Positions 42,951 through 55,541 of a stretch of 64,000 bases of DNA are shown piece after piece; position 1 is the stretch's first letter; every line of letters begins with the position of its first letter. The notes under the pieces were generated by a model that saw only the letters and a list, made by a program, of their open reading frames with translations, did not search any database and was not told the DNA's origin. This DNA comes from Candidatus Poribacteria bacterium (GTDB lineage Bacteria > Poribacteria > WGA-4E > WGA-3G). The translations under genes were made by a program, and so were the position numbers. The stretch spans positions 64,001-128,000 of the forward strand of contig CBDANF010000002.1 of the NCBI GenBank assembly GCA_965197475.1. Direction: 5' to 3'.

Positions 42951-43412
42951 TTAGTCCTCAATTTCAACGATCATTTCGATTTCAACAGGAATACCGCCGG
43001 GCAATTGCACCATGCCAACTGCTGAACGGGCGTGTTTGCCTTTGTCACCAAATACCTCAACGAAGAAATCTGATGCGCCATTGACAACTGCGGGTTGGTC
43101 AATGAAATCTGGTGATGAGTTGACAAATCCAACGAGCTTCACAACACGTTTAATTCGATCCAGATCGCCCAGGGCGTGTTTTAGAGTGCTCAACAACCCG
43201 ATTGCAACTTGGCGTGCAGAGGCATAACCCTCTTCAATGGTTGCATCTGTGCCGAGTTGACTCTTATAGATTGGACCTTCACCTGTGCCAGGACCGTGTC
43301 CAGATGTAAAAATAAGATTTCCTGTTTGAACCGTTGTAACATAATTGGCAACAGGTATAGCAGGAGGCGGTAATTCCACGCCTAATTCTTCAAGTCGTTT
43401 TTCTATTTTCAT
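42951..43412 (-). CDS. RidA/YjgF-family protein
   Basis: Likely start MKIEKRLEELG; PVANYV, VVKLVGFVNS, NGASD, HARSAVG. Confidence 0.9.
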   Translation of the reverse strand: MKIEKRLEELGVELPPPAIPVANYVTTVQTGNLIFTSGHGPGTGEGPIYKSQLGTDATIEEGYASARQVAIGLLSTLKHALGDLDRIKRVVKLVGFVNSSPDFIDQPAVVNGASDFFVEVFGDKGKHARSAVGMVQLPGGIPVEIEMIVEIED

Positions 43413-43753
43413 GTAATTTAATATCTCCCATATAAGTTCGTATTTAAAGGTGCTACAGACATGACATCTTGAATAAGTCTCTATTATTAAATAGGTTTTC
43501 GTTGATTTTGTCAAGTAAATTATAATTTTCTTCGTTTGCATTATTTCTTGATTTCTTGTCCGATGTGTGATATATTTTAAGTTATCACTATGTTAAATTA
43601 ACTCTGTGTTAGGAAAAATAGTTATACAACCATTGCACTCCGCTGGAACTATTGTAGGAGGATTGATTCTTAAACCTGAAGATGCTGAAGTACTGCGAAA
43701 TCCTAAACTTTAGCGCGGATGCGATATTAAGTGAACGTAGTAAAACACATTTC

Positions 43754-44104
43754 ATGAAGATACCAAATGCTGAACGTGCTATTGTTGACATTCGCAAGCT
43801 GCGAGATTATTGCCTCAATCCGCAGCATAATAAAGGAAAACATAAAGCCCGCTTATTTACCTCCATACTCGGTATGAATACTAATGATGCAGAAGACTTA
43901 CGTAACGTCTTATTAGAAGTTGTCAAGAAACAGGACGCACAATTAGCTGAAAAGAACGCGTATGGGCAGCGTTATACGCTTGATTTTACGTTAAATTGGA
44001 ACGACAAGCAAGCGACAATTCGTAGTGCTTGGATTATTGAAACTGATTCTGACATCCCAAAATTGACAACTGTGTTTCCATTGATACATAAAGGTGAACT
44101 ATGA
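43754..44104 (+). CDS. DUF6883-like putative toxin
   Basis: MKIPNAERAIVDIRKLRDYCLNPQHNKGKHKARLF...YGQRY...IRSAWII....PKLTT (recalled family signature); ATGA overlap with the next gene. Confidence 0.8.
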   Translation: MKIPNAERAIVDIRKLRDYCLNPQHNKGKHKARLFTSILGMNTNDAEDLRNVLLEVVKKQDAQLAEKNAYGQRYTLDFTLNWNDKQATIRSAWIIETDSDIPKLTTVFPLIHKGEL

Positions 44105-47100
44105 AAAATAAATTTTCCAATGACACCTCAAATATAGGAAATTCGACTGAACACAGCCAGGAACCTGCAGGTAATGGCAAAATCAAACTTCTGGATGTCG
44201 TTGCGCTTGCACAGGATATTCCTGAGCATAATCTCAAACGTGGAGAAACCGGTACTGTCGTTGAAATCCTTTCGAACGGCGAAGCGTTTGAGGTGGAATT
44301 TAGTGATGAGAATGGACAGATGTATAAGTGTACAAGTTTCCTTGCATCTCAACTCACAGTCCTCCACGATGAACCAATAAATACAAATCCGAACCGTCAA
44401 GCAAATGACGCCATACAAGGTTACTACTATCAACTGTGCCATACTGTAGATGCTTGGTTAGACCTTGCTGATAATGATATTCTCTATGTTGAAGTTGCGG
44501 AAGATTTTGATATAGAGTCAGATGGAACGTTTACAGCCACGCAAGTCAAACACACACAACGCAATATATCACTTAGATCTGAGCAAGTGATTAACGCAAT
44601 CAACAACTTTTGGAAATTGCGAAATGACAATTCTAATCGGTGTGTGAAATTCCGTCTCCTCACAAAATCTAAGATCGCAAAAGAACAAGAGGACCCCTTT
44701 GGAACGGATAAACCAGGCCTTGAGTTATGGAGTCATTGTTCCGGTGATGAAGTAGTAATCAAAAAAATATCCAACTTTTTGCAGAATGATGGGAAAATAT
44801 CAGCGGAAGTAAGTGAATTTCTCGAACAAACAGAACCGCAAAATATTTATGAACAACTCATTGAACCCATTACTTGGGAGACAGGTAGCAAACCTATAAG
44901 TTATGTTGAACGATCCATAAATAGTAAATTAATTCTTCATGGTAGTCGACAACCTATCCCAGTACCACCTTCTGATGCCAAGAAAGTAGTTGGCTGTCTT
45001 CTCAAAGAAACCTTAACGGTTGCAACACAAAAAGAAAACCGAGAACTTACCAAAGCACGCTTCCTTGAAATTTTCGAGGAGCAAACCACACAAAGGATTC
45101 CGACACAGCATTTGCAACAGCTGCAAAGTCAAGTGACAATGATGCACAGTGTTGGAATGCCATCTTTTAAGGGTTCCTCCGATATTACTATCCAATTTCA
45201 ATCTCTAATACAAACTGAGATACCTCAAACATACTTGGATGTCCTTGTTCCAAGAACAGATCTACTCACAAGTATACAGACAAAACTCCAATCAGAAGGT
45301 ATATCTATAATCCATGGAGGAGCGGGAAAAGGAAAAACAACCCTCGCAAAATTGACTGCAAACGCTATAAGCGGAAAATGGTTTTGGCAGAGTTTCACAA
45401 AAATGGATCCGTTATCTAAAGAATTTTCACTTCAGGTTGCCCAACAGTTGAAACAGCTTGCTATTGCGATACATAATGAATCTTCTCAAGTCAATGTTGT
45501 CCTTGATGACTTGAGTTTACAATCTAAACATCTACATGGATATAAAGAAGAATTAGGTGTTGTGGTCTATAATGTCCTTAATCGTGGTGCAAAATTGTTG
45601 ATTACAAGCCAACATAAAACACCTCTTAATTTCATTACCAGCCTTGGTTTACCATCATCTATCGTCATAGATGTTCCTAACTTTACCATGCCCGAAATTG
45701 AGCAATTTGCTGAACAAATGGGGTGTCCGACTAATGACTTAAAAACTTGTGTAATCTCTATTCAAACACATACACTTGGACATCCAAAACTCGTACACGC
45801 TCGATTAGCTCAATTGCGGGAGAAAAACTGGAAAGAAAAACACACAATAGAAAGTCTCATGCAAACGCCCCAAGAAGTGAAAGACGAACGCGAAGCAGCA
45901 CGACAGTTAGTTTCCAAATTACCCGAAGATCAACAGAAATTTCTCTATAGACTTAGCCTAATGCATACTGTATTTAGGAGAGATTATGCTCTCAACATTG
46001 GCGAAATCCCAGAACCCGTTCAGAATCCTGGAATTGTACTTGATCAATTGGACGGTCCATGGATAGATCGTGTTAATGAAACTTACTTCACTATTTCACC
46101 TTTACTAATTGACGCAGCTAAACAGGTTTGGTCTAAGAACGTGACAAACAAACTTCACACACAGATTGCAAACGCAATCCTTGAAGCAGATCATCTAACC
46201 ACGATAGAAGCACGAACTGTATTTCATCATAGTATACAAGGACAAAATAAAAAAGGATTAATTTCTGTCATTTATTCTTTGATAACTGCCCCAGAGGATG
46301 ATTGGCAAAATATTTGTCAAGAATTCTCATGGATCAGATATCTTAAAACCAATCCTCCCGATGAATTTTTCCCTGGGGATTTCTTTGAAAATCACATGTT
46401 TCGATCATTGCAGTATCGATTTTCGGTAGAGGTGGAACCAGAATTTGCCCCGAAAATACTTGAAATCTGGGATAACGAAACCAAAAAATACAAAACACAT
46501 CAATCATATATGATGGCACGTCTAATGCTCACAACACAAGCATTGATATATAATCAAGCGCAATTTTCAGCCAAGAAATTGATGAGTTATCTAAAAGAAA
46601 TCTATGATATAAAAAACATGGGCAAAAAGGTTTGGAAGTCATACTTTAATTCCATGGAAGAATTAAAAGAAATAAACATTGATGAATCAAACTTTTTCAG
46701 TTTCCTATTTAGTTGTATCTATATGCGTCCAGAAATCAACGCTGTTTTCCTCAATGAACTTATTGATACACTGGATAAACTTGATCCAAGAATTAGAACG
46801 TTATTATTGGTTGACTTTGAGAATGATACCATTCAATCACAACTTTTGAATAATGGAGTTTGGTTAACAGAGGAAAAACTTGAAAATCCTAATTGGACAA
46901 GATGTCTTGAAGCTTTTGATAAAGTAATTGAAAAAACTATTGCATGGGGTTATCCATATATCGCTGCTGCATCAGCAAGAATTAAAGCCATCACCCATGA
47001 CGAAAAATTGAGCGACCCAGATACCGCTCATAAAGTTCTTCAAGATATTATATCAAAACTTGGTACTTTACCAACGATAGAAGAAGCACAAGCAGTCGTA

Positions 47101-48651
47101 TACTTTAACCAGAAACGCTACAAAGACGCACTCAATATTTACGAACGTATTCTCCCAAAATGGAATCCACCATCAGACCAAGTAAACATTGGACCTTTAG
47201 AGGAATATCGTAGAGCCGCTATCTGTGCAGCCAACTTGGACGATTGGAAGAAAACAGCCTGCTTTTTTGAAGAGGGAGCTAATAAAACTCGAAAGATTGA
47301 AAATACTGAAAGATATATCGGTTTATATGCAGATGCAGGATTTGCCCACTTTAAAGCAGGCAATATGTTGAACTGCATAAAATTCCTACATCTGGCGTTG
47401 CAAAATTTTGAGACACTACCTCAAGACAATACAGATGTTAAGTATTTCACTTTAAAGAAACGATTAGAATACATTATAAAATGGATATGGGTGATATGGT
47501 GCGGACTTGAAAATAACTCTTCAGAACTTACTGAACCCTCTGCAGGTTTCTGTAGTGATCCGGAGACTAAAGAAAAAGTTTTAGACTTACCTGATTCTCC
47601 GATAGGATACTCTTGGCTCTTTTTAGCGCAAATTGAGTACAGATTTGGACATGAGACGACAGTTTTCCAACATGCCCTGCAAACCACAGATAGAAATACA
47701 TATCCAGAATTAAGTTTCTTTCTTTCTCTACTCAAAACACAATATGACTTTAGAAACAAAACCCTCAATGAACTACCAACACGTATACAGCAATTGGCAA
47801 ATGCTTGCAACTCAATACAAAAGCACCTCCAAAGTGGAAAAGGGATCAGAGAAGAGGGAATCGGCTTTATACCTATAGAAAACGTGCCCAATTTCACATC
47901 TGTTGAGAACACCACTGTTATGTTAGTAGCAGCCCTTGTTATTCAATTATCAGCAGGCGCAGATACACATGCAATTTTGTCTATATGGCGTGCTAATTCT
48001 TCAGAGCTATTTATAAAAGAAAATATGATAAATGTTCTTAATCTGATTGACAGAATGTTATCTGCAGATCAAAATTATGCCCTAAAAGTGATGAAAACAC
48101 AAGATGTTAAACCTGAAGAGAGGTTAACAGCAGCATTAAAGATTATTCATAATATCGAAACAAGTCCAAAAGATCTTTTTCATGCACATATACTCATTTC
48201 AACTTATCTCGTTGATAGTCTAATATGGCTAGATCCCTTCTTGACAGGTTTAGCAGGATTACTTTCTGCACAGTGGCTTGAGAAAATAAAATTTCGAGCG
48301 GCATTGAAAATGCCTATGGTTACAGTGCCCGAAATTGAACAAGCCTGTAACAGTAGTGAGACTGGGAAGAAAAAAATCGGTCAGATTCTACTTGCAGCAC
48401 ATCCCGCTGTTTCAGTTAGAGTGGCACCTGATACATTGCAGCAGTTTCGCACTTGGACAGAATCAAAGCAGAAACAGGAACATGCCATAGGAAAAAATCC
48501 AACAGCACAACGCCTGATCAAAGCGATGGAAAAGCCACCGCATCTCACTGATGAAGATATTGAAGCACTGAATCAGTCAATAAAAGAGGGGGAAATACCT
48601 ATAAAGTTTGATTCGCCCTTTGAACCGGATGAACGTGAAAACAATGAATAA
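44101..48651 (+). CDS. DUF4926 + Cap4/DUF4297-like nuclease + P-loop (STAND-like) NTPase + helical/TPR-like region + antitoxin-like tail (1516 aa)
   Basis: aa~28-90 KLLDVVAL..D..GETGTVVE..FEVEF; aa~100-150 AIQGYYYQ..EVAEDFD..QVK; Walker A GGAGKGKT (aa406); Walker B VVLDD (aa466); helical C-terminal half; tail LIKAMEKPPHLTDEDIEALNQSIKEG. Confidence 0.75.
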   Translation: MKNKFSNDTSNIGNSTEHSQEPAGNGKIKLLDVVALAQDIPEHNLKRGETGTVVEILSNGEAFEVEFSDENGQMYKCTSFLASQLTVLHDEPINTNPNRQANDAIQGYYYQLCHTVDAWLDLADNDILYVEVAEDFDIESDGTFTATQVKHTQRNISLRSEQVINAINNFWKLRNDNSNRCVKFRLLTKSKIAKEQEDPFGTDKPGLELWSHCSGDEVVIKKISNFLQNDGKISAEVSEFLEQTEPQNIYEQLIEPITWETGSKPISYVERSINSKLILHGSRQPIPVPPSDAKKVVGCLLKETLTVATQKENRELTKARFLEIFEEQTTQRIPTQHLQQLQSQVTMMHSVGMPSFKGSSDITIQFQSLIQTEIPQTYLDVLVPRTDLLTSIQTKLQSEGISIIHGGAGKGKTTLAKLTANAISGKWFWQSFTKMDPLSKEFSLQVAQQLKQLAIAIHNESSQVNVVLDDLSLQSKHLHGYKEELGVVVYNVLNRGAKLLITSQHKTPLNFITSLGLPSSIVIDVPNFTMPEIEQFAEQMGCPTNDLKTCVISIQTHTLGHPKLVHARLAQLREKNWKEKHTIESLMQTPQEVKDEREAARQLVSKLPEDQQKFLYRLSLMHTVFRRDYALNIGEIPEPVQNPGIVLDQLDGPWIDRVNETYFTISPLLIDAAKQVWSKNVTNKLHTQIANAILEADHLTTIEARTVFHHSIQGQNKKGLISVIYSLITAPEDDWQNICQEFSWIRYLKTNPPDEFFPGDFFENHMFRSLQYRFSVEVEPEFAPKILEIWDNETKKYKTHQSYMMARLMLTTQALIYNQAQFSAKKLMSYLKEIYDIKNMGKKVWKSYFNSMEELKEINIDESNFFSFLFSCIYMRPEINAVFLNELIDTLDKLDPRIRTLLLVDFENDTIQSQLLNNGVWLTEEKLENPNWTRCLEAFDKVIEKTIAWGYPYIAAASARIKAITHDEKLSDPDTAHKVLQDIISKLGTLPTIEEAQAVVYFNQKRYKDALNIYERILPKWNPPSDQVNIGPLEEYRRAAICAANLDDWKKTACFFEEGANKTRKIENTERYIGLYADAGFAHFKAGNMLNCIKFLHLALQNFETLPQDNTDVKYFTLKKRLEYIIKWIWVIWCGLENNSSELTEPSAGFCSDPETKEKVLDLPDSPIGYSWLFLAQIEYRFGHETTVFQHALQTTDRNTYPELSFFLSLLKTQYDFRNKTLNELPTRIQQLANACNSIQKHLQSGKGIREEGIGFIPIENVPNFTSVENTTVMLVAALVIQLSAGADTHAILSIWRANSSELFIKENMINVLNLIDRMLSADQNYALKVMKTQDVKPEERLTAALKIIHNIETSPKDLFHAHILISTYLVDSLIWLDPFLTGLAGLLSAQWLEKIKFRAALKMPMVTVPEIEQACNSSETGKKKIGQILLAAHPAVSVRVAPDTLQQFRTWTESKQKQEHAIGKNPTAQRLIKAMEKPPHLTDEDIEALNQSIKEGEIPIKFDSPFEPDERENNE

Positions 48652-49060
48652 ATATCTCTTGGATACATCAACATGTAGTTTGTTGATGGAGGATAATCCC
48701 AGAGTGAAAGGGCGTTTAGATTCTTTGACTGAGTCGGACTACCCTTTTACTTGTCCAATCGTTAAGGGCGAAATTCTGTTCGGAATTGGTCGGCTCCCTG
48801 CCGGAAAAAGAAGACAAGATCTCGAACAAAGGGCAAATGAACTATTTGCTGAAGTTCCGTGTGACCCAATCCCTGAGAATGTTAGTGATGTTTATGCACA
48901 GATAAAAGTTGCTGCTCAACAGCAGGGAACGTCTTTAGGTGAATGCGACCTTTGGATTGCTGCTACGGCTTTATCTCTTGATGCAATCCTGGTTGCTTCC
49001 GATTCTGATTATGAAAGAATAGTTGGATTAGGGCTCCGTCTGGAAGATTGGAAAAATTAA
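48644..49060 (+). CDS. vapC: VapC/PIN-domain ribonuclease toxin
   Basis: YLLDTS, VKGEILFG, DLWIAATAL, LVASDSDY acidic PIN motifs; 8-bp overlap with the upstream gene. Confidence 0.9.
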   Translation: MNKYLLDTSTCSLLMEDNPRVKGRLDSLTESDYPFTCPIVKGEILFGIGRLPAGKRRQDLEQRANELFAEVPCDPIPENVSDVYAQIKVAAQQQGTSLGECDLWIAATALSLDAILVASDSDYERIVGLGLRLEDWKN

Positions 49061-49111
49061 CGAAAGAGATATTTCACGTCAATAACACAGATAAACCGAA
49101 AGGAATTGCCC

Positions 49112-50734
49112 ATGCCAACACTTGAATTCAACGGAAAACACCACATTTACACACACCACCTCACCGTTCCCTACCGACCACTTGAAAAAGACGAAAGTCG
49201 CTCTTGCAACCCAACCAGTGAAAACGATAACCTAATTATTCACGGCGACAACCTACACGCCTTAAAAGCATTACTTCCCCGCTATACGAACCGAATCAAG
49301 TGTATCTACATTGACCCACCCTACAACACCGGCAACGAAGGATGGGTTTACAACGACAACGTAAACAGTCCCTTGATGCAGGAATGGTTAAAAGAAAATG
49401 GACCAGTTGATGAAGAAGACCTTGAACGGCATGAAAAGTGGCTCTGTATGATGTGGCCCCGGTTGCATCTGCTCAAAGAACTTCTTGCCAAAGATGGCGT
49501 AATTTTTATCTCTATTGATGATAACGAACAACACCATTTACGATTGCTGATGGACGAGATATTTGGTCCTGATAATTTCGTAACGCAGTTCATATGGAAT
49601 AAGAAAAATGTTGTTCAGAACGACGCAAAATTCGCATCAGTCAATCATGAATATATCATTTGTTACCGTAAGAGTGATGACTTTCAACGGTTTAATCTTC
49701 TTCCGAGAAGCGAGAAAGCTAACCAGAGATACAAGAATCCTGATAACGATCCTCGTGGTCTTTGGCAGAGCGTAGCACTCCAAGCTAAAAGTGGTACACA
49801 AGCAAATGTATATACTGTGACATTTCCAAACGGTGTCACTTGGACACCTCCGAGTGGAACATTCCCTAAATTTTCAAAAGAAAATCTTTTATCACTTTAC
49901 AAAGAAGGGAGTTTATATTTCGGAGAAAAAGGTGAAAACGTCCCGCGTCTAAAAAAATATCTTTCTGATGTCATGCCGGGTATGGTATCAAACTCTATAT
50001 TAACAACAGATGAAGTAGGGTCCACACAGGCAGCTACCGAAACAGTAAAGAACATCATGGGAGACAACGTATTCAGTTCTCCGAAAGCCGTTGGACTTAT
50101 CCAACGTTTCCTGTTAATTTCTACCGGTCCCGACGACATCATCCTTGACTCCTTTGCAGGGAGCGGCACAACAGCCCATGCTGTCCTCGCCTTGAACAAA
50201 GAGGATGGTGGTAACCGTAAATTCATCCTCATTGAGTGTGAAGATTATGCCGACACCGTCACTGCTGAACGTGTCCGCCGCGTTATTAAGGGTGTTCCCG
50301 ATGCAAGTGACGATGGACTGCGCGAAGGGTTGGGAGGATCTTTTACCTATTGCACCTTGGGCGAACCGATTGAAGTTGAGGCGATGCTTACCGGAAAGAA
50401 GTTACCAACATACATGGCACTTGCTACTAATCTCTTGTTTACTTCTGCAGGTATTTCTATTAAGGGTGATACGTTGGAGCAGAAAAATGATGATGGACTT
50501 TTTTACAGTGATGACAAAAACGATTACTATCTGATTTACAAACAAGACTTTGAGTATTTACGCAGCAACGAAGCAATCCTAAATCTGGAGCATGCCAAAC
50601 GTATCCAAGATTCCAGTACCGAAAACGGCAAAAAAGCGATTGTCTACGCGGCAGGAAATTATATCGGACAGCGCGAACTCACAAAGATGGGAATTGCATT
50701 TTGCCAACTTCCATATTGCATACATGAAAGATAA
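49112..50734 (+). CDS. mod: Type III R-M adenine methyltransferase (Mod)
   Basis: IIHGDNLHALK, IYIDPPYNTG, IFISIDDNE, ILDSFAGSGTTAHAV. Confidence 0.92.
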   Translation: MPTLEFNGKHHIYTHHLTVPYRPLEKDESRSCNPTSENDNLIIHGDNLHALKALLPRYTNRIKCIYIDPPYNTGNEGWVYNDNVNSPLMQEWLKENGPVDEEDLERHEKWLCMMWPRLHLLKELLAKDGVIFISIDDNEQHHLRLLMDEIFGPDNFVTQFIWNKKNVVQNDAKFASVNHEYIICYRKSDDFQRFNLLPRSEKANQRYKNPDNDPRGLWQSVALQAKSGTQANVYTVTFPNGVTWTPPSGTFPKFSKENLLSLYKEGSLYFGEKGENVPRLKKYLSDVMPGMVSNSILTTDEVGSTQAATETVKNIMGDNVFSSPKAVGLIQRFLLISTGPDDIILDSFAGSGTTAHAVLALNKEDGGNRKFILIECEDYADTVTAERVRRVIKGVPDASDDGLREGLGGSFTYCTLGEPIEVEAMLTGKKLPTYMALATNLLFTSAGISIKGDTLEQKNDDGLFYSDDKNDYYLIYKQDFEYLRSNEAILNLEHAKRIQDSSTENGKKAIVYAAGNYIGQRELTKMGIAFCQLPYCIHER

Positions 50735-50743
50735 GGGGGAAGG

Positions 50744-53326
50744 ATGCTGGAATTAAAAACATATCAGCGCGATACACTCGACGCATTTAGCAATTGGTTA
50801 GAGGTGCTTAAAGAGGAGCGGCAAACTTCAAAAACTGCAATTGAACATTTAAAAGAAGCGGGGAGTAGTATTAGTGACGATGTTCTCAATGAAATAGGTA
50901 ATTATCCCAAAACTGCATGGAGGAAATTGAAAGAAAACGATGGCGTTGCAGCAACTGCAGGTGAATACGTTGATCGTAAGGATGGCGCAAATCGACCAAT
51001 TCCGCACATCTGTTTTAAAGTGCCGACAGGTGGCGGTAAAACACTGCTTGCAGCATCTGCTTTAGAACAACTGCATCGGCAGCGGGGACTGACATTGTGG
51101 GTTGTGCCAACAAAGGCTATCTTCGATCAAACGAAGGCTGCTTTGTGGAACAAAGAACACCCCTATCGTAAAGTTTTGGAACGTGCAAGTGCTGGGCGCG
51201 TCAAGATGCTGGAAAGAGAACATCCATTTAACAGAGATGACATTACTAATTACCTTTGTGTCATGCTACTCATGTTGCCAGCAGCGAATAAATCGCCTGA
51301 TAAAAAACTCAAAGACAAAGCGTACTACCGTATGTATAGAAATTCAGGGCGTTATTCAAGTTTTTTCCCCGACCATGACGATAACGAGGGCAATACCCTT
51401 ATGCAAGAGAAATACCCCGATCTTGATTATAACACTGAAGGAAACTTGCCTATGCAAAGTCTCTTTAACGTAATCAAGATACTTCATCCCGTAGTTGTTC
51501 TTGACGAGGCACATAAGGCTTATGGCACTAAAAATGGGCAGGAATTTGCAAGTTCTATTAACCGCCTTGACCCGCAAATGGTTATTGAACTCTCTGCTAC
51601 ACCGAACAGCGGCATTAGCAATTTGCTTGTTGATATTGCAGGCCCCGATCTGAAAAAAGAGGAAATGATTAAGTCACCAGTACAGGTATCATCATTTTCA
51701 GGTATGACGTGGCAAAATACGTTGAGCGAGGCTTCCAAGGAACTTGAAAGGCTTGATGAGGAGGCAAGTTTGCTTGAAAGCAGTACGGATCGGTATATCC
51801 GCCCCATTGCAGTTGTGCGCGTTGAGGTGACGGGTGCGAATCTGCAAGATGGCACGCGAATCCATGCCGAGCATGTTCGAGATTACCTTACACAAAATTT
51901 AAATGTGCAACCAGAGGCAGTACGTGTTAAATCCGCTTATAATGATCAACTCCGTGGGGAAAACCTACTATCCAAGGAATCACAGGTAAAATGGATAATT
52001 ACAAAATCTGCTTTGATGGAGGGATGGGACTGTTCGTTTGCATATCTGTTAGTAATGCTGGACAATACACGGTCGCAAAATGCAATTACGCAACTCATAG
52101 GAAGAGTAATGCGGCAACCACATGCACAACTTACGGGTAGAGAATCACTTGATCAATGTTACGTTTTTTGCAATGAGACCGATGTTGATGATGCCGTCAA
52201 GCAGGTTAAGAGGGGATTAGAATCACAAGGACTCACTGGCATGGAAGATAAAATATTTGCTAAGGGAAATACCCAGGATCAAGCAGATTTCAAAATGGAA
52301 AAGATACGCCGCCGCGAGCAATTTCGTGGGCAAGAGATTTATTTGCCAGTGGTACGTCATAAGGACGGTAACAAATGGATTCAACTCAATTATCAGGCAC
52401 ATATTTTGCCACATATAGATTGGCTTAGTATTAAACCACCCGATCTGAATGCGTCAGCACCCGACGGACCAAGATTGCGAACAGCAACAGTTCCTATTGA
52501 CGATGTACCGCCTATTTTCCATGACGATCAAGAGCCTTATGTTGAAAAAGAGGTTAGTGTAGCCGATTTTGCGCTCAGTTTGATTGACATTGTGTCAAAT
52601 CCATGGCAAGCTGCTCGCATTGCAGAAGAATTGGTAGAAGGTCTAAAAACAAGTGGAGATACTGATGAAAAAATCTACGATAGACGTTCTTATCTCATTC
52701 CTATGTTGCATGAACACGTTGCAAATGAATTAGAAAATCAAGCTGAACAAATTTTTCGAAAAAAGTTGGATACTGCCGAAATTCAATTTGACTTAGAGGT
52801 AGGTGATCCGAATTATAAACTGCGACAAAATTACAAAATTGAGGTACACGCCAATCAGAATTTACTTACAAAATATGGTAAACCTGTTCAACTCAGTCTG
52901 TTTGAACCAATGTATGAGTATCCTTCAGATAACGAATTAGAAAAGAAATTTGCACATTTCCTTGATGGTGAGAAAGCACTGCAATGGTGGCATCGGGTCA
53001 TAGCGCGTCAACAGGGAGAATATTACGTGCAAGGTTGGAAAGATAGGCGCATTTACCCCGACTTCGTTGCAATGGCGAAGGAAATTGAAGGCATGACGCG
53101 TGTTCTGATTTTTGAGACAAAAGGAGAACATTTGGAAGGTAACCGTGACACAGAGTACAAGGAGAAAGTATTGACAATACTTGAAGAAGCGTTTAATAAC
53201 TCTGGCACTATAAAAATGTGTGAAAAAACGACTCATACAGGTATCTTTAATTTGGTTTTCAACGAGCAGCAGTTTGCAGAAATATCTGCCCAGTTGAATG
53301 AAGGCGCATATTCTACGGAAAATTAG
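50744..53326 (+). CDS. res: Type III restriction enzyme Res subunit
   Basis: KVPTGGGKT, LDEAH, ELSATP, EGWD, QLIGRVMRQP, C-terminal YPDF...FETKG nuclease. Confidence 0.9.
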   Translation: MLELKTYQRDTLDAFSNWLEVLKEERQTSKTAIEHLKEAGSSISDDVLNEIGNYPKTAWRKLKENDGVAATAGEYVDRKDGANRPIPHICFKVPTGGGKTLLAASALEQLHRQRGLTLWVVPTKAIFDQTKAALWNKEHPYRKVLERASAGRVKMLEREHPFNRDDITNYLCVMLLMLPAANKSPDKKLKDKAYYRMYRNSGRYSSFFPDHDDNEGNTLMQEKYPDLDYNTEGNLPMQSLFNVIKILHPVVVLDEAHKAYGTKNGQEFASSINRLDPQMVIELSATPNSGISNLLVDIAGPDLKKEEMIKSPVQVSSFSGMTWQNTLSEASKELERLDEEASLLESSTDRYIRPIAVVRVEVTGANLQDGTRIHAEHVRDYLTQNLNVQPEAVRVKSAYNDQLRGENLLSKESQVKWIITKSALMEGWDCSFAYLLVMLDNTRSQNAITQLIGRVMRQPHAQLTGRESLDQCYVFCNETDVDDAVKQVKRGLESQGLTGMEDKIFAKGNTQDQADFKMEKIRRREQFRGQEIYLPVVRHKDGNKWIQLNYQAHILPHIDWLSIKPPDLNASAPDGPRLRTATVPIDDVPPIFHDDQEPYVEKEVSVADFALSLIDIVSNPWQAARIAEELVEGLKTSGDTDEKIYDRRSYLIPMLHEHVANELENQAEQIFRKKLDTAEIQFDLEVGDPNYKLRQNYKIEVHANQNLLTKYGKPVQLSLFEPMYEYPSDNELEKKFAHFLDGEKALQWWHRVIARQQGEYYVQGWKDRRIYPDFVAMAKEIEGMTRVLIFETKGEHLEGNRDTEYKEKVLTILEEAFNNSGTIKMCEKTTHTGIFNLVFNEQQFAEISAQLNEGAYSTEN

Positions 53327-53417
53327 CATAGTATACATCCAAGCAAGACTAAATTAAACATAATAAAGTTACGTGTATATGCTATAATAACCGTAAAATC
53401 TATTTTGGAGCGCGGAG

Positions 53418-55541
53418 ATGGTAATTGCTGTAGATGCAGCGTCCCTTGACAAACGTAACCGAACAGAGCAGCAACTTTTCGCAGTTGTTGAGCAGAACAC
53501 CCCCGACTCAGTAAAAACACCCCTTTTTCCGCAAGACGACCCCGATGCATTCACGTTCATGCTCAACAAAGAACTGATTGAACGGCTAAACCTTTGGGAA
53601 TGGTATCGCAATTATGCGAAGGAAGCACAGGTGTCAACCGCTGGGATACGTGGTCCACAAAACATTCTCTATCCGTGGGATACGCGCTTTCCGATTAATC
53701 AGGTTGGCATAATCTTGGCGACACTTGGAAAGAGTCTTGTGGCAAAGGAATCATCAGGTGGGAAACTTATTGAGAAACTTGCAGGATGTGAGGTGCGCTA
53801 CAACTCACGAAAATATGTTGAGTTCATTGCTCGCATTCAGGCGGCGCAAGGTATACGGACTTATGTGCCGAAAGCGTTTGGTACATTGCCGATTTGGATG
53901 GCATCGTTCCTTATTTTCATGCTTGACTTGGATGGCGGTGAGCATGTTACATCAAGCCACTCTGTTAGCACTAAAAATGCAACAAAGGATCTCAACAATC
54001 AGGGGAGTCAATACCTGCCCGAAGAATCTATGCGCTTCGTCAAAAAGATTGAGGAGATTCTCAAAACTGCTGACACAGAGAGGTATCCGATTCAGTTCAG
54101 CGCAGCCACTGACGAACATATTGATTTTGAACGATTAGACGAACTCCACGATGGCGTACAGCTTTATGTCGGTTATCTCAAAAGTGGTGTTGCTACAGAT
54201 ACAAATCTCAGCCTTATCCGCGAGACGAAACCTCCCATAGTTGTCGATTGTGTGGGTGGATGTATGTATCGTCCGATGCGTGCGATCTTTGAACGTTTAG
54301 GCATCGCTGGCTCTGTCCGTTGGCTGCATGTTGAGGCAGACCCACTCTATCATAACATCGGAAAACTGGATCGAAATCCGAAAACAGGTGAGGCGGAATT
54401 CTACGACCTCGGATGCGATTTTAGCATACTTAATGTTGTCAAATCTGCTGAGTATGGGACGAAACTCAAGGGACAACCTATCGGAATAATCATTGAGGCA
54501 ACCGATCCAGATGGAGACCGACTCATTGTTTGTCAAATTGAAGAGGTATCGCGTGCCGAAACACTACAACGTCTCGGGGTTGATTTTCTAATGCTTGACG
54601 ATAATCGGTTGTTGACGATTTACACCCCTAATCAGGCGTTTCTGATGTTGATGGACTTCCACACAAAACAACTTAAAGCATCAGGACTTTGGGAACATCA
54701 TCCGCGCTTCATGATTAAAACAACTCCTTCCGCACTTGCTTGGGACCAATGGGCTGCGTCTAATGGGGTGAACGTGATTAATGTACCGGTCGGTTTCAAA
54801 GAGATCGCCTCAATTATGAAAAAGATTGAGCGGCAGATCGCCAATACGCCAGATGCATCGGTTGTTATCCAAGATGTTTACGGTGAAACGATTTCACTCG
54901 GTGTGCAGCCACGACTAATCTTCGCAGGCGAAGAAAGCGGAGGGATGATTACCGGTCCTGAAAAACTTATCCAGAGTCACGGTGGTAGGAAGGCAATCGC
55001 AATGCGGGAAAAATCGGCAGGTGAATCCATGGTGTTGGTTACAGCACTTGCCGCACATTGCAAACAGGCGAACATTCCTTTGTCCGACTATCTCGCTTCA
55101 GTATTTAGAGATAGTCAGATTATCGCAACGTGTGATGTAAGAGAGGACATTACCTACTATAACGAATCTGAACCGAATCCTGAAAAACTGCATGAAGCAA
55201 AACGTGAAGGCGAAGCAATACGTGATAAAAACGACCTATTTTTTCTTGGAATTGCTATTGCACTCCGCGAAGGGAAAATAGACATGGAGCAAGTCCGTGC
55301 TATCCTCTCCGATGCCCTCCCGGAACTGGATTTCACAAAGCTTGAGAGCGTCCACTTCGTAGGTGATGGGACTTATTTTAAGTTTGCAGATAAGTTCGTT
55401 GAGGTCCGAAAATCAGGAACAGATGCAAAGACAAAAGCCTACGCCTCTGGTGGTGATAAAGAGGAATGTCGGCGTTATGCCAAAGCCTTTGGTGAAACGA
55501 GTGGAGATCTGACCGAACTTTACCGCGCACAAATTGGATAG
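53418..55541 (+). CDS. Divergent phosphoglucomutase/phosphomannomutase-family protein
   Basis: STAGIRG, TSSHS, TDPDGDR, VGFK, GEESGG, RKSGT. Confidence 0.8.
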   Translation: MVIAVDAASLDKRNRTEQQLFAVVEQNTPDSVKTPLFPQDDPDAFTFMLNKELIERLNLWEWYRNYAKEAQVSTAGIRGPQNILYPWDTRFPINQVGIILATLGKSLVAKESSGGKLIEKLAGCEVRYNSRKYVEFIARIQAAQGIRTYVPKAFGTLPIWMASFLIFMLDLDGGEHVTSSHSVSTKNATKDLNNQGSQYLPEESMRFVKKIEEILKTADTERYPIQFSAATDEHIDFERLDELHDGVQLYVGYLKSGVATDTNLSLIRETKPPIVVDCVGGCMYRPMRAIFERLGIAGSVRWLHVEADPLYHNIGKLDRNPKTGEAEFYDLGCDFSILNVVKSAEYGTKLKGQPIGIIIEATDPDGDRLIVCQIEEVSRAETLQRLGVDFLMLDDNRLLTIYTPNQAFLMLMDFHTKQLKASGLWEHHPRFMIKTTPSALAWDQWAASNGVNVINVPVGFKEIASIMKKIERQIANTPDASVVIQDVYGETISLGVQPRLIFAGEESGGMITGPEKLIQSHGGRKAIAMREKSAGESMVLVTALAAHCKQANIPLSDYLASVFRDSQIIATCDVREDITYYNESEPNPEKLHEAKREGEAIRDKNDLFFLGIAIALREGKIDMEQVRAILSDALPELDFTKLESVHFVGDGTYFKFADKFVEVRKSGTDAKTKAYASGGDKEECRRYAKAFGETSGDLTELYRAQIG

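Follow-up and report, generated by a model that had tools for sequence, protein, structure and literature searches.

In a member of the Candidatus Poribacteria, the antitoxin of a VapBC toxin–antitoxin (TA) pair appears to be carried as the C-terminal tail of a very large defence protein. The locus lies in a window of 64,000 nucleotides (nt) from contig CBDANF010000002.1 (assembly GCA_965197475.1, positions 64,001 to 128,000), where an open reading frame (ORF) for a protein of 1516 amino acids (aa), referred to here as the giant, is followed by the gene for a PIN-domain toxin of the VapC type. The reading that the last ~52 aa of the giant constitute a VapC-binding, VapB-like module is well supported by homology, by the pairing of tail and toxin genes, by the reading frame, by selection and by a structural model. 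Of the explanations considered for the arrangement as a whole, the one placed slightly above even odds is that this in-frame VapB-like antitoxin module acts as a passive tether for the toxin, serving addiction or a suicide back-up.

The TAA stop codon of the giant (48649-48651) overlaps the vapC start codon, ATG 48644, by 8 nt: ATGAATAA. The PIN ORF opens at a TTG at 48608, yet all orthologues begin at ATG 48644 (MNKYLL...), giving a toxin of 138 aa. The same 8-nt overlap, or a spacing of 0-11 nt, is found at the tail/vapC junction of 26 related loci. VapC matches the Pfam PIN model with 51.9 bits (cut-off 23.6), and its relatives in PDB include VapC 6nkl, FitB, VapC 3zvk and VapC 3tnd. Positions 7, 43, 102, 120 and 122 are D, E, D, D and D respectively and align with acidic residues of FitB and of an H. 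influenzae VapC. Among 25 orthologues, 19 have D at position 7, five have E and one has Q, whilst the other four positions are invariant, and the ratio of non-synonymous to synonymous substitution (dN/dS) is 0.21 over 25 loci, indicating purifying selection. VapC falls below the cut-offs of both NCBIfam models for tRNA(fMet)-specific endonuclease VapC (NF047863, 55.4 bits against 140; NF010285, 25.1 bits against 143), so that these models assign it no target RNA.

The tail was followed by means of a 61-aa piece (giant aa 1456-1516) containing 14 acidic and nine basic residues. Nearly all short candidate proteins (99 of 100) match this piece at E <= 0.01, most of them free-standing, 60-71 aa long and 75-90% identical. 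A further 366 longer database proteins match the tail, which lies at the extreme C-terminus in every one of the 120 that are listed. These 120 comprise 35 proteins with the tail behind the body of the giant (the part between the N-terminal DUF4926 domain, where present, and the tail), 15 with DUF4926, body and tail, 28 with a partial body, three with DUF4926 and a partial body, 26 in which DUF4926 is joined to the tail with no body, and 13 with some other N-terminal part, AF2212-like domains (PF01954) among them. In all, the tail has at least five different partners at its N-terminal side. No DNA-binding domain of the AbrB, ribbon–helix–helix, helix–turn–helix (HTH) or Phd type was found with Pfam or NCBIfam in the tail or elsewhere in the giant. 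Free-standing or otherwise fused relatives likewise have none, giving sub-threshold matches to DUF2281, AF2212-like domains or DUF4926, or nothing, and a profile of the tail does not match solved antitoxins. Where the VapC homologue is more distant (55-67% identity), the upstream protein is of 85-100 aa, the tail being preceded by a linker and, before that, by a helix with a weak, sub-threshold likeness to DUF2281.

Other partners were encountered in passing. At L131:691-2532 an open frame of 614 aa with tetratricopeptide (TPR) repeats has a homologue of the tail at its end, and behind it lies a VapC homologue of 63% identity; this TPR protein may be another large fusion partner. At L114:2277-2687 and L022:1501-2163 the N-terminal part has no Pfam match, or consists of an AF2212-like and an unnamed domain, with VapC next. 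An AAA_21 frame running into an antitoxin at L132 was not counted as a fusion, a Met being present at the usual start of the antitoxin.

The tail occurs once in the window genome, which also encodes one VapC of this family (E <= 1e-10), and it is therefore the only candidate antitoxin there. Amongst 176 genomes of the same phylum group, a tail match is present in 121 and a VapC match at E <= 1e-10 in 89. Tail matches are concentrated in three families (87 of 111, 10 of 11 and 23 of 29 genomes) and are absent from the other eight (0 of 24). When 185,579 species representatives were scanned with a pattern, 80 loci were obtained, 76 titled Poribacteria and four 'uncultured bacterium', and the source names of the short and longer tail-matching proteins agree with this poribacterial distribution.

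The pairing of tail and toxin was tabulated from listed coordinates for 90 VapC homologues covering at least 125 of the 138 residues with no stops, shorter fragments being excluded. A tail match lies directly upstream of 44 of the 45 close homologues (>= 70% identity). The sole close homologue lacking a full tail is at L050:1270-1914, where a remnant of DUF6883 runs into what is left of the tail, its last 20 residues; VapC there might be covered in trans by a DUF4926-tail gene present elsewhere in the genome. For homologues at 55-70% identity a listed tail was present in 20 of 40, with 57 weaker tail matches falling outside the list, and the three distant homologues without a listed tail that were checked all have one directly upstream.

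Near-full-length giants were compared at 44 loci, the best 30 from a search with the body and 14 fetched additionally. An intact in-frame tail is followed by VapC at 25 of these, and at one more (L081) the body is frameshifted, the tail continues the frame of a C-terminal piece of 240 aa, and VapC is present. An intact in-frame tail without VapC is found at four (L069, L070, L072 and L087). VapC is also absent from the one locus where the giant stops in the linker (L093), from three where the tail is decayed and in another frame (L080, L085 and L102), from three where the tail is a separate gene (L095, L096 and L099), and from seven with no tail at all, where the body runs directly into the methyltransferase gene (Mod) of a type III restriction–modification (R-M) system. 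Thus the in-frame tail is intact in 29 of the 44 loci and VapC present in 26, and in none does VapC stand behind a missing or out-of-frame tail. The giant-tail fusion is conserved in three families and persists across divergence of the body to about 55% identity.

Twelve broken or partial giants, left out of these counts, were scored by coordinates. Nine (G071, G120, G092, G098, G035, G077, the second locus of G105, G170 and G121) keep VapC behind a tail that ends an open frame of 240-1165 aa. The other three do not: G076 has a deletion, G100 has no adjacent VapC and the second G137 copy has no tail. The deletion (L007:1504-1710) runs the tail, still in frame, into the final ~13 VapC residues, leaving the toxin nearly gone. 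Internally deleted giants of 582-592 aa also exist, in which DUF4926 is joined in frame to the body from about residue 1024 onward and then the tail, so that both antidote ends are kept (G077:C115:33667-35391, with VapC retained, and G076:C149:37695-39380; proteins P0157, P0210 and P0219).

A FastTree phylogeny of the 44 bodies places the fused, VapC-bearing form in every major clade, with losses as scattered tips. VapC presence requires at least nine changes on this tree, eight of them forced by starred branches, and the in-frame tail at least six. One nested series runs from L075 (fused with VapC) through L070 (tail only) and L080 (tail decayed) to L073 (neither), which is consistent with VapC being lost first and the tail decaying afterwards, although the direction depends on a root that the tree does not supply.

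The reading frame across the junction is also maintained. The linker, measured from a conserved Trp to KNP, is of 10, 12 or 14 aa in 3, 10 and 15 respectively of the 28 in-frame loci measured, varying by whole codons only, and at each of the 26 giant loci with VapC the tail continues the reading frame of the ORF before it. No conserved in-frame ATG, GTG or TTG lies between the body and the invariant Met of the tail motif AMEKPP in 30 in-frame loci, and no purine-rich stretch precedes that Met. Helix 1 of the tail (NPxAQRLIKA), which lies upstream of it, is nearly invariant and, because there is no conserved start ahead of the AMEKPP Met, would be made only by read-through from the giant. The core of the tail has a dN/dS of 0.14 at a proportion of synonymous differences (pS) of 0.49, whereas the final 60 codons of the body give 0.44.

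One complex prediction was made from an alignment of VapC and an alignment of the tail as scored partner, in three runs with three controls. The interaction score (ipSAE) was 0.80, 0.83 and 0.83 for the three runs and 0.00 for the best control; the mark set for this score is reached by 116 of 157 solved complexes and two of 215 mismatched pairs. Contacts agreed between runs to at least 96%, and the predicted local confidence (pLDDT) of the partner was 70-72. The modelled interface involves tail residues 9-43 (giant aa 1464-1498) and VapC residues 8-9, 12-17, 22, 25-34, 43-51, 56-72 and 99-101, so taking in E43 and residues beside D7 and D102. Both predicted helices of the tail would then lie over the active-site face of VapC, and the model supports binding.

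The first-pass annotation of this DNA had noted that VapC overlaps the stop codon of the 1516-aa ORF, that its acidic motifs are intact, and that its only candidate antitoxin is a C-terminal tail without a DNA-binding domain. These observations are all borne out, and the 99 short and 366 longer matching proteins show that the tail match is not due to chance. The antitoxin-like character of the tail is likewise supported, given its homology to small proteins upstream of VapC, its place in the frame of the giant and the model on the active-site face; the regulatory interpretation drawn from it is not supported. A move of toxin control away from transcriptional autoregulation had been proposed, but the free-standing relatives are also without a recognisable DNA-binding domain. 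Control was supposed to have passed to the state of the nucleoside triphosphatase (NTPase), but VapC is kept at three loci behind proteins in which DUF4926 is joined to the tail with no body, and behind the nine truncated giants, and the NTPase body is therefore dispensable for holding VapC.

The giant belongs to an island whose ORFs are DUF6883, the giant, VapC, Mod and the restriction gene (Res) only (Table 1), flanked by housekeeping genes, namely an enoyl reductase and a PGM-like gene.

Table 1. Positions of the genes, domains and segments of the island within the window
Feature	Position	Strand	Basis or remark
DUF6883 gene, 140 aa	43682..44104	+	Pfam DUF6883, E 9e-29
Giant ORF, 1516 aa	44101..48651	+	DUF4926, Cap4/LmuA-like nuclease, P-loop STAND-like NTPase, long helical region, linker, tail
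DUF4926 domain, giant aa 30-87	44188..44361	+	Pfam, E 5.1e-20
Cap4 dsDNA endonuclease / DUF4297 (LmuA-like) domain, giant aa 107-227	44419..44781	+	Pfam Cap4_nuclease, 32.8 bits, cut-off 26.2
P-loop region GGAGKGKT with STAND-like matches, giant aa 386-427	45256..45381	+	Pfam, sub-threshold
Hydrophilic linker TESKQKQEHAIG, giant aa 1453-1464	48457..48492	+	Length varies among loci
Antitoxin-like tail, giant aa 1465-1516	48493..48648	+	Two predicted helices and an acidic extended end
VapC-type PIN toxin gene, 138 aa and stop	48644..49060	+	Pfam PIN, E 1.4e-13
Type III R-M methyltransferase (Mod)	49112..50734	+	PADLOC MTase_III, 5.3e-167; Pfam N6_N4_Mtase
Type III restriction enzyme (Res)	50744..53326	+	PADLOC REase_III, 2.3e-163; Pfam ResIII

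Mod and Res are both full length, the MTase_III match covering positions 1-539 of a 542-position profile and the REase_III match residues 2-819 against a profile of 883 positions. The DUF6883 gene and the giant overlap by stop and start codon (ATGA, 44101-44104), and the Pfam matches to DUF6883 and DUF4926 both exceed their cut-offs. The nuclease region matches the PADLOC LmuA model (giant aa 99-331, 9.6e-16), and there is no gene in the island for the LmuB partner of Lamassu, which resembles structural maintenance of chromosomes (SMC) proteins. The P-loop region gives 23.4 bits with the Pfam model nSTAND3 (cut-off 27.2), 16.8 bits with NACHT and a weak match to AAA_16, pointing towards the signal transduction ATPases with numerous domains (STAND); none of the PADLOC Avs models matches the giant at E <= 0.001. 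A promoter and terminator scan of 43300-53600 found 21 promoter-like sites against 27.2 expected from shuffles, with no sign of an internal promoter. Two metatranscriptome contigs span the tail/vapC junction (48594-48860 and 48525-48855); they were not used as evidence, since such contigs cannot reveal starts, strands or single transcripts and may stem from DNA carry-over. A type III R-M locus accompanies the related giant in every one of the 44 loci annotated. Gene order in two families is giant-tail, VapC, Mod, Res. In the third (L098, L100 and L102) it is Mod, giant-tail, VapC, Res, and the position of giant-tail and VapC between Mod and Res points to co-transcription with the R-M system.

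A second presumed antidote is found at the other end of the giant. DUF4926 is fused to 16 of the 44 giants, and a DUF6883 gene lies upstream of nine of these 16, as against none of the 28 without DUF4926. In a preprint of 2026 (10.64898/2026.08.28.747851), DUF6883 is assigned to the BECR-Tox3 family of RNase toxins, and the downstream DUF4926 is proposed from gene neighbourhood as its immunity protein. The giant would thus be flanked by two toxin genes and carry both presumed antidotes within a type III R-M island, as judged from sequence. A second, ordinary pair lies elsewhere in the window genome (contig C3:797850-798509, L218), consisting of a DUF6883 gene (64% identity, its match interrupted by one TAA) and, behind it, a DUF4926 that stands free.

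The joined antidotes also occur without the body, at 24 loci in the same island setting with Mod and Res, or fragments of them, downstream. The DUF4926-tail ORF is open in all 24, whilst VapC is intact in three, a remnant in four and absent from 17, and DUF6883 is intact in none and a remnant in six. It follows that the toxin genes decay and the double-antidote ORF persists. The DUF4926/tail junction sequences are of several kinds, and these, taken with the internally deleted 582-592 aa giants, suggest that the body was lost in frame more than once. The DUF4926 domain tree has one starred branch only; the loss events are uncountable on it, and a single origin of the small DUF4926-tail proteins is possible.

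The favoured explanation can be set out as follows. The antitoxin gene of a VapBC pair would have become fused in frame to the preceding Cap4-nuclease/STAND defence gene, and VapC would be neutralised stoichiometrically by the C-terminus of the giant with no DNA-binding autoregulation. The N-terminal DUF4926 would likewise neutralise the DUF6883 RNase toxin encoded upstream. Should the supply of the tail-bearing polypeptide be lost or stopped, whether by deletion, by frameshift, by host shut-off or by proteolysis during infection, the toxin or toxins would be freed. Such release would make the defence gene and the type III R-M island addictive, and might provide a suicide back-up. The NTPase appears neither to be required for holding the toxin nor to depend on it, because VapC is kept by truncated and body-less forms, and intact giants may be without both tail and VapC.

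A number of observations weigh against this explanation. No listed VapC lies downstream of 81 of the 150 listed tail matches, and some tail-bearing genomes have no VapC match at E <= 1e-10 (for example G080, G083-G087, G089 and G090). Of the body-less DUF4926-tail loci, 21 are without an intact VapC. The clade in which a tail gene precedes the gene for a Toll/interleukin-1 receptor (TIR) domain protein rather than VapC makes another role or partner for the tail possible. The tail could also be released at a later stage by proteolytic cleavage in the linker. Of the independent pairs on the body tree, tail and VapC change in the same direction in 4-5, in opposite directions in none and remain unchanged in 3-4, which with 8-9 pairs is not significant (p about 0.06-0.125). 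That tree was built with FastTree from related genomes and has no outgroup, and loss rather than gain is a matter of interpretation. The score of the complex model may be lifted by solved VapBC-type complexes, and the alignments made for it were shallow (25 and 37 rows). Finally, the occurrence of the tail on homologous NTPases with no vapC neighbour, which the first-pass annotation had regarded as telling against its reading, is formally seen at the four loci with an intact tail and no VapC; these are, however, tips beside tail-decayed or tail-less forms, which fits a recent loss of VapC.

An alternative held to be possible though improbable is that the toxins are released under sensor control, the STAND NTPase sensing infection, changing conformation or oligomerising, and so freeing VapC and the DUF6883 toxin as extra effectors. 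The presence of antidote modules at both ends of a protein composed of nuclease, NTPase and helical repeats would suit such a device, as would the conservation of the fusion in three families. There is a precedent in ParA systems with an NTPase sensor, which according to a preprint (10.64898/2026.10.19.760177) have 'captured a TA unit' as effector. The retention of VapC behind body-less and truncated forms shows that the NTPase is not needed to keep hold of the toxin. Furthermore, the seven giants with neither tail nor VapC, several of them without internal stops, indicate that VapC is not an obligatory effector. For these reasons the passive tether is favoured over sensor-triggered release. 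A related proposal, speculative and given about one chance in several, is that of a two-armed leash, in which DUF4926 and the VapB-like tail each dock an RNase toxin and both toxins are freed either when infection is sensed or when a phage destroys the protein. If true, TA toxins would here be non-covalently recruited effectors of an immune sensor resembling the nucleotide-binding leucine-rich repeat (NLR) proteins.

A further possibility, judged unlikely, is that the tail has no specificity for VapC and serves the island more generally in docking or regulation, for instance as a degron, as a chaperone tag or as an adaptor to several effectors. Its attachment to at least five N-terminal partners might suggest as much, and it is 72-94% identical in many loci and genomes that have no VapC. 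At L095, L096 and L099 a tail gene of 64 aa, its ATG overlapping the TGA of the giant, is followed by a gene of 313 aa for a CAP12/Pycsar TIR-domain protein (PF10137, E 9.6e-41) in place of VapC (L095:6009-7145), so that the position behind the tail may be a slot for exchangeable effectors. It is common, however, for orphan antitoxins to outlive their toxins. Nearly every VapC of the family has the tail directly upstream, VapC is never found behind a broken tail in giant loci, and the model places the tail on the active-site face with controls at 0.00; all of this argues for a VapC-specific role.

Little probability is given to a separate mini-antitoxin produced by internal initiation, re-initiation or cleavage of the linker, for which the in-frame layout would be incidental. 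Free-standing forms of 60-71 aa are known, the tail is a separate gene at L095, L096 and L099, a conserved Met is present within it (AMEKPP), and the hydrophilic linker is a possible cleavage site. The three separate-gene loci are without VapC, however, and wherever VapC is present among the giant loci (26 of them) the tail keeps to the upstream frame. Initiation at the AMEKPP Met would drop the nearly invariant helix 1, which forms part of the modelled interface, and upstream of that Met the 30 in-frame loci offer neither a conserved start nor a purine-rich leader. The internal start raised by the first-pass annotation is thereby weakened, with cleavage or initiation still possible. That VapC is a decaying or inactive remnant, the fusion being a neutral accident of stop-codon loss at an ATGA-type overlap, can be given very little credence: there are VapC remnants at L028, L107, L108 and L113, a deletion at L007 and DUF6883 remnants at six of the 24 DUF4926-tail loci, and a one-base change at the overlap of L095, L096 and L099 would yield a fusion, but VapC in the window is full length with all its acidic residues, the family is under purifying selection and the fusion is kept in bodies diverged to about 55% identity.

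The module that the passive-tether explanation invokes resembles canonical VapBC pairs (FitAB and the VapBC of Shigella and Rickettsia; PDB 2h1o, 3tnd, 3zvk) in having a PIN toxin with conserved acidic residues and an antidote encoded immediately upstream, with overlapping stop and start codons and C-terminal helices that are modelled over the active-site face. It differs in that the antidote forms the last ~52 aa of a 1516-aa nuclease/NTPase, has no N-terminal DNA-binding domain and bears no sequence match to solved antitoxins. A conceptual likeness may be seen with the anticodon nuclease PrrC, an ABC-ATPase-fused nuclease that is masked by the R-M enzyme itself: it remains latent while bound by the EcoprrI type Ic R-M proteins and is freed when that defence is attacked. 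By analogy, an RNase toxin in an R-M locus would be held by a defence protein in both cases. The two are not homologous, and the restraint on the PIN toxin here would come from a dedicated antitoxin peptide, borne by a third protein, beside a type III R-M system. CapRel(SJ46) reportedly combines toxin and antitoxin in one chain as a fused defence protein. There too the antitoxin element is covalently part of a larger defence polypeptide rather than a free labile protein; here, by contrast, the toxin is a separate protein and an unrelated defence enzyme bears the antitoxin. The nuclease domain, of the LmuA-type Cap4/DUF4297 kind, is shared with Lamassu (LmuA-LmuB-LmuC), from which the island differs in having no SMC-like LmuB gene.

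Further parallels are found in recent reports. The ParA ternary systems described in a preprint (10.64898/2026.10.19.760177), the nearest precedent found, also link a TA pair to an NTPase bearing sensor-like repeats in a defence setting, their toxin being a proposed suicide effector. Their three genes are separate, the NTPase is of the ParA kind and the antitoxin is usually of the HTH type; the poribacterial locus has instead a STAND-like NTPase, a covalently fused antitoxin module and a second antidote–toxin pair at the other end. The DUF6883 (BECR-Tox3)/DUF4926 pairs described in a preprint (10.64898/2026.08.28.747851) show the same order of a toxin gene with DUF4926 directly adjacent downstream, whereas here DUF4926 is the N-terminal domain of a giant or of a DUF4926-tail module and not a protein of ~100 aa. 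The coupling of immunity to suicide (PMC3506569) is a concept resembling the passive tether. No description of a STAND/Cap4 defence protein with a fused antitoxin module, or of a protein that lies between two toxin genes and bears the antidotes to both, was found in the literature searched, supplementary tables lying outside the search, and in the literature found docked TA toxins are not described as a means of effector recruitment by STAND/Avs proteins.

The arrangement has consequences for annotation, since antitoxins may escape notice as the last 50 residues of large proteins. It also comes with a ready deletion set in the form of natural variants: full-length giants, internally deleted giants, DUF4926-tail alone, a separate tail gene, and TIR replacing VapC. 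TA systems are common neighbours of immunity genes, and how the two are coupled is mostly unknown; in these Poribacteria the coupling would lie within a polypeptide, the antidote being part of the defence protein. TA toxins may also serve here as docked effectors of an NLR-like sensor. The locus thus offers a testable case in which loss or silencing of a defence gene would free a toxin, providing for addiction to the island or a suicide back-up.

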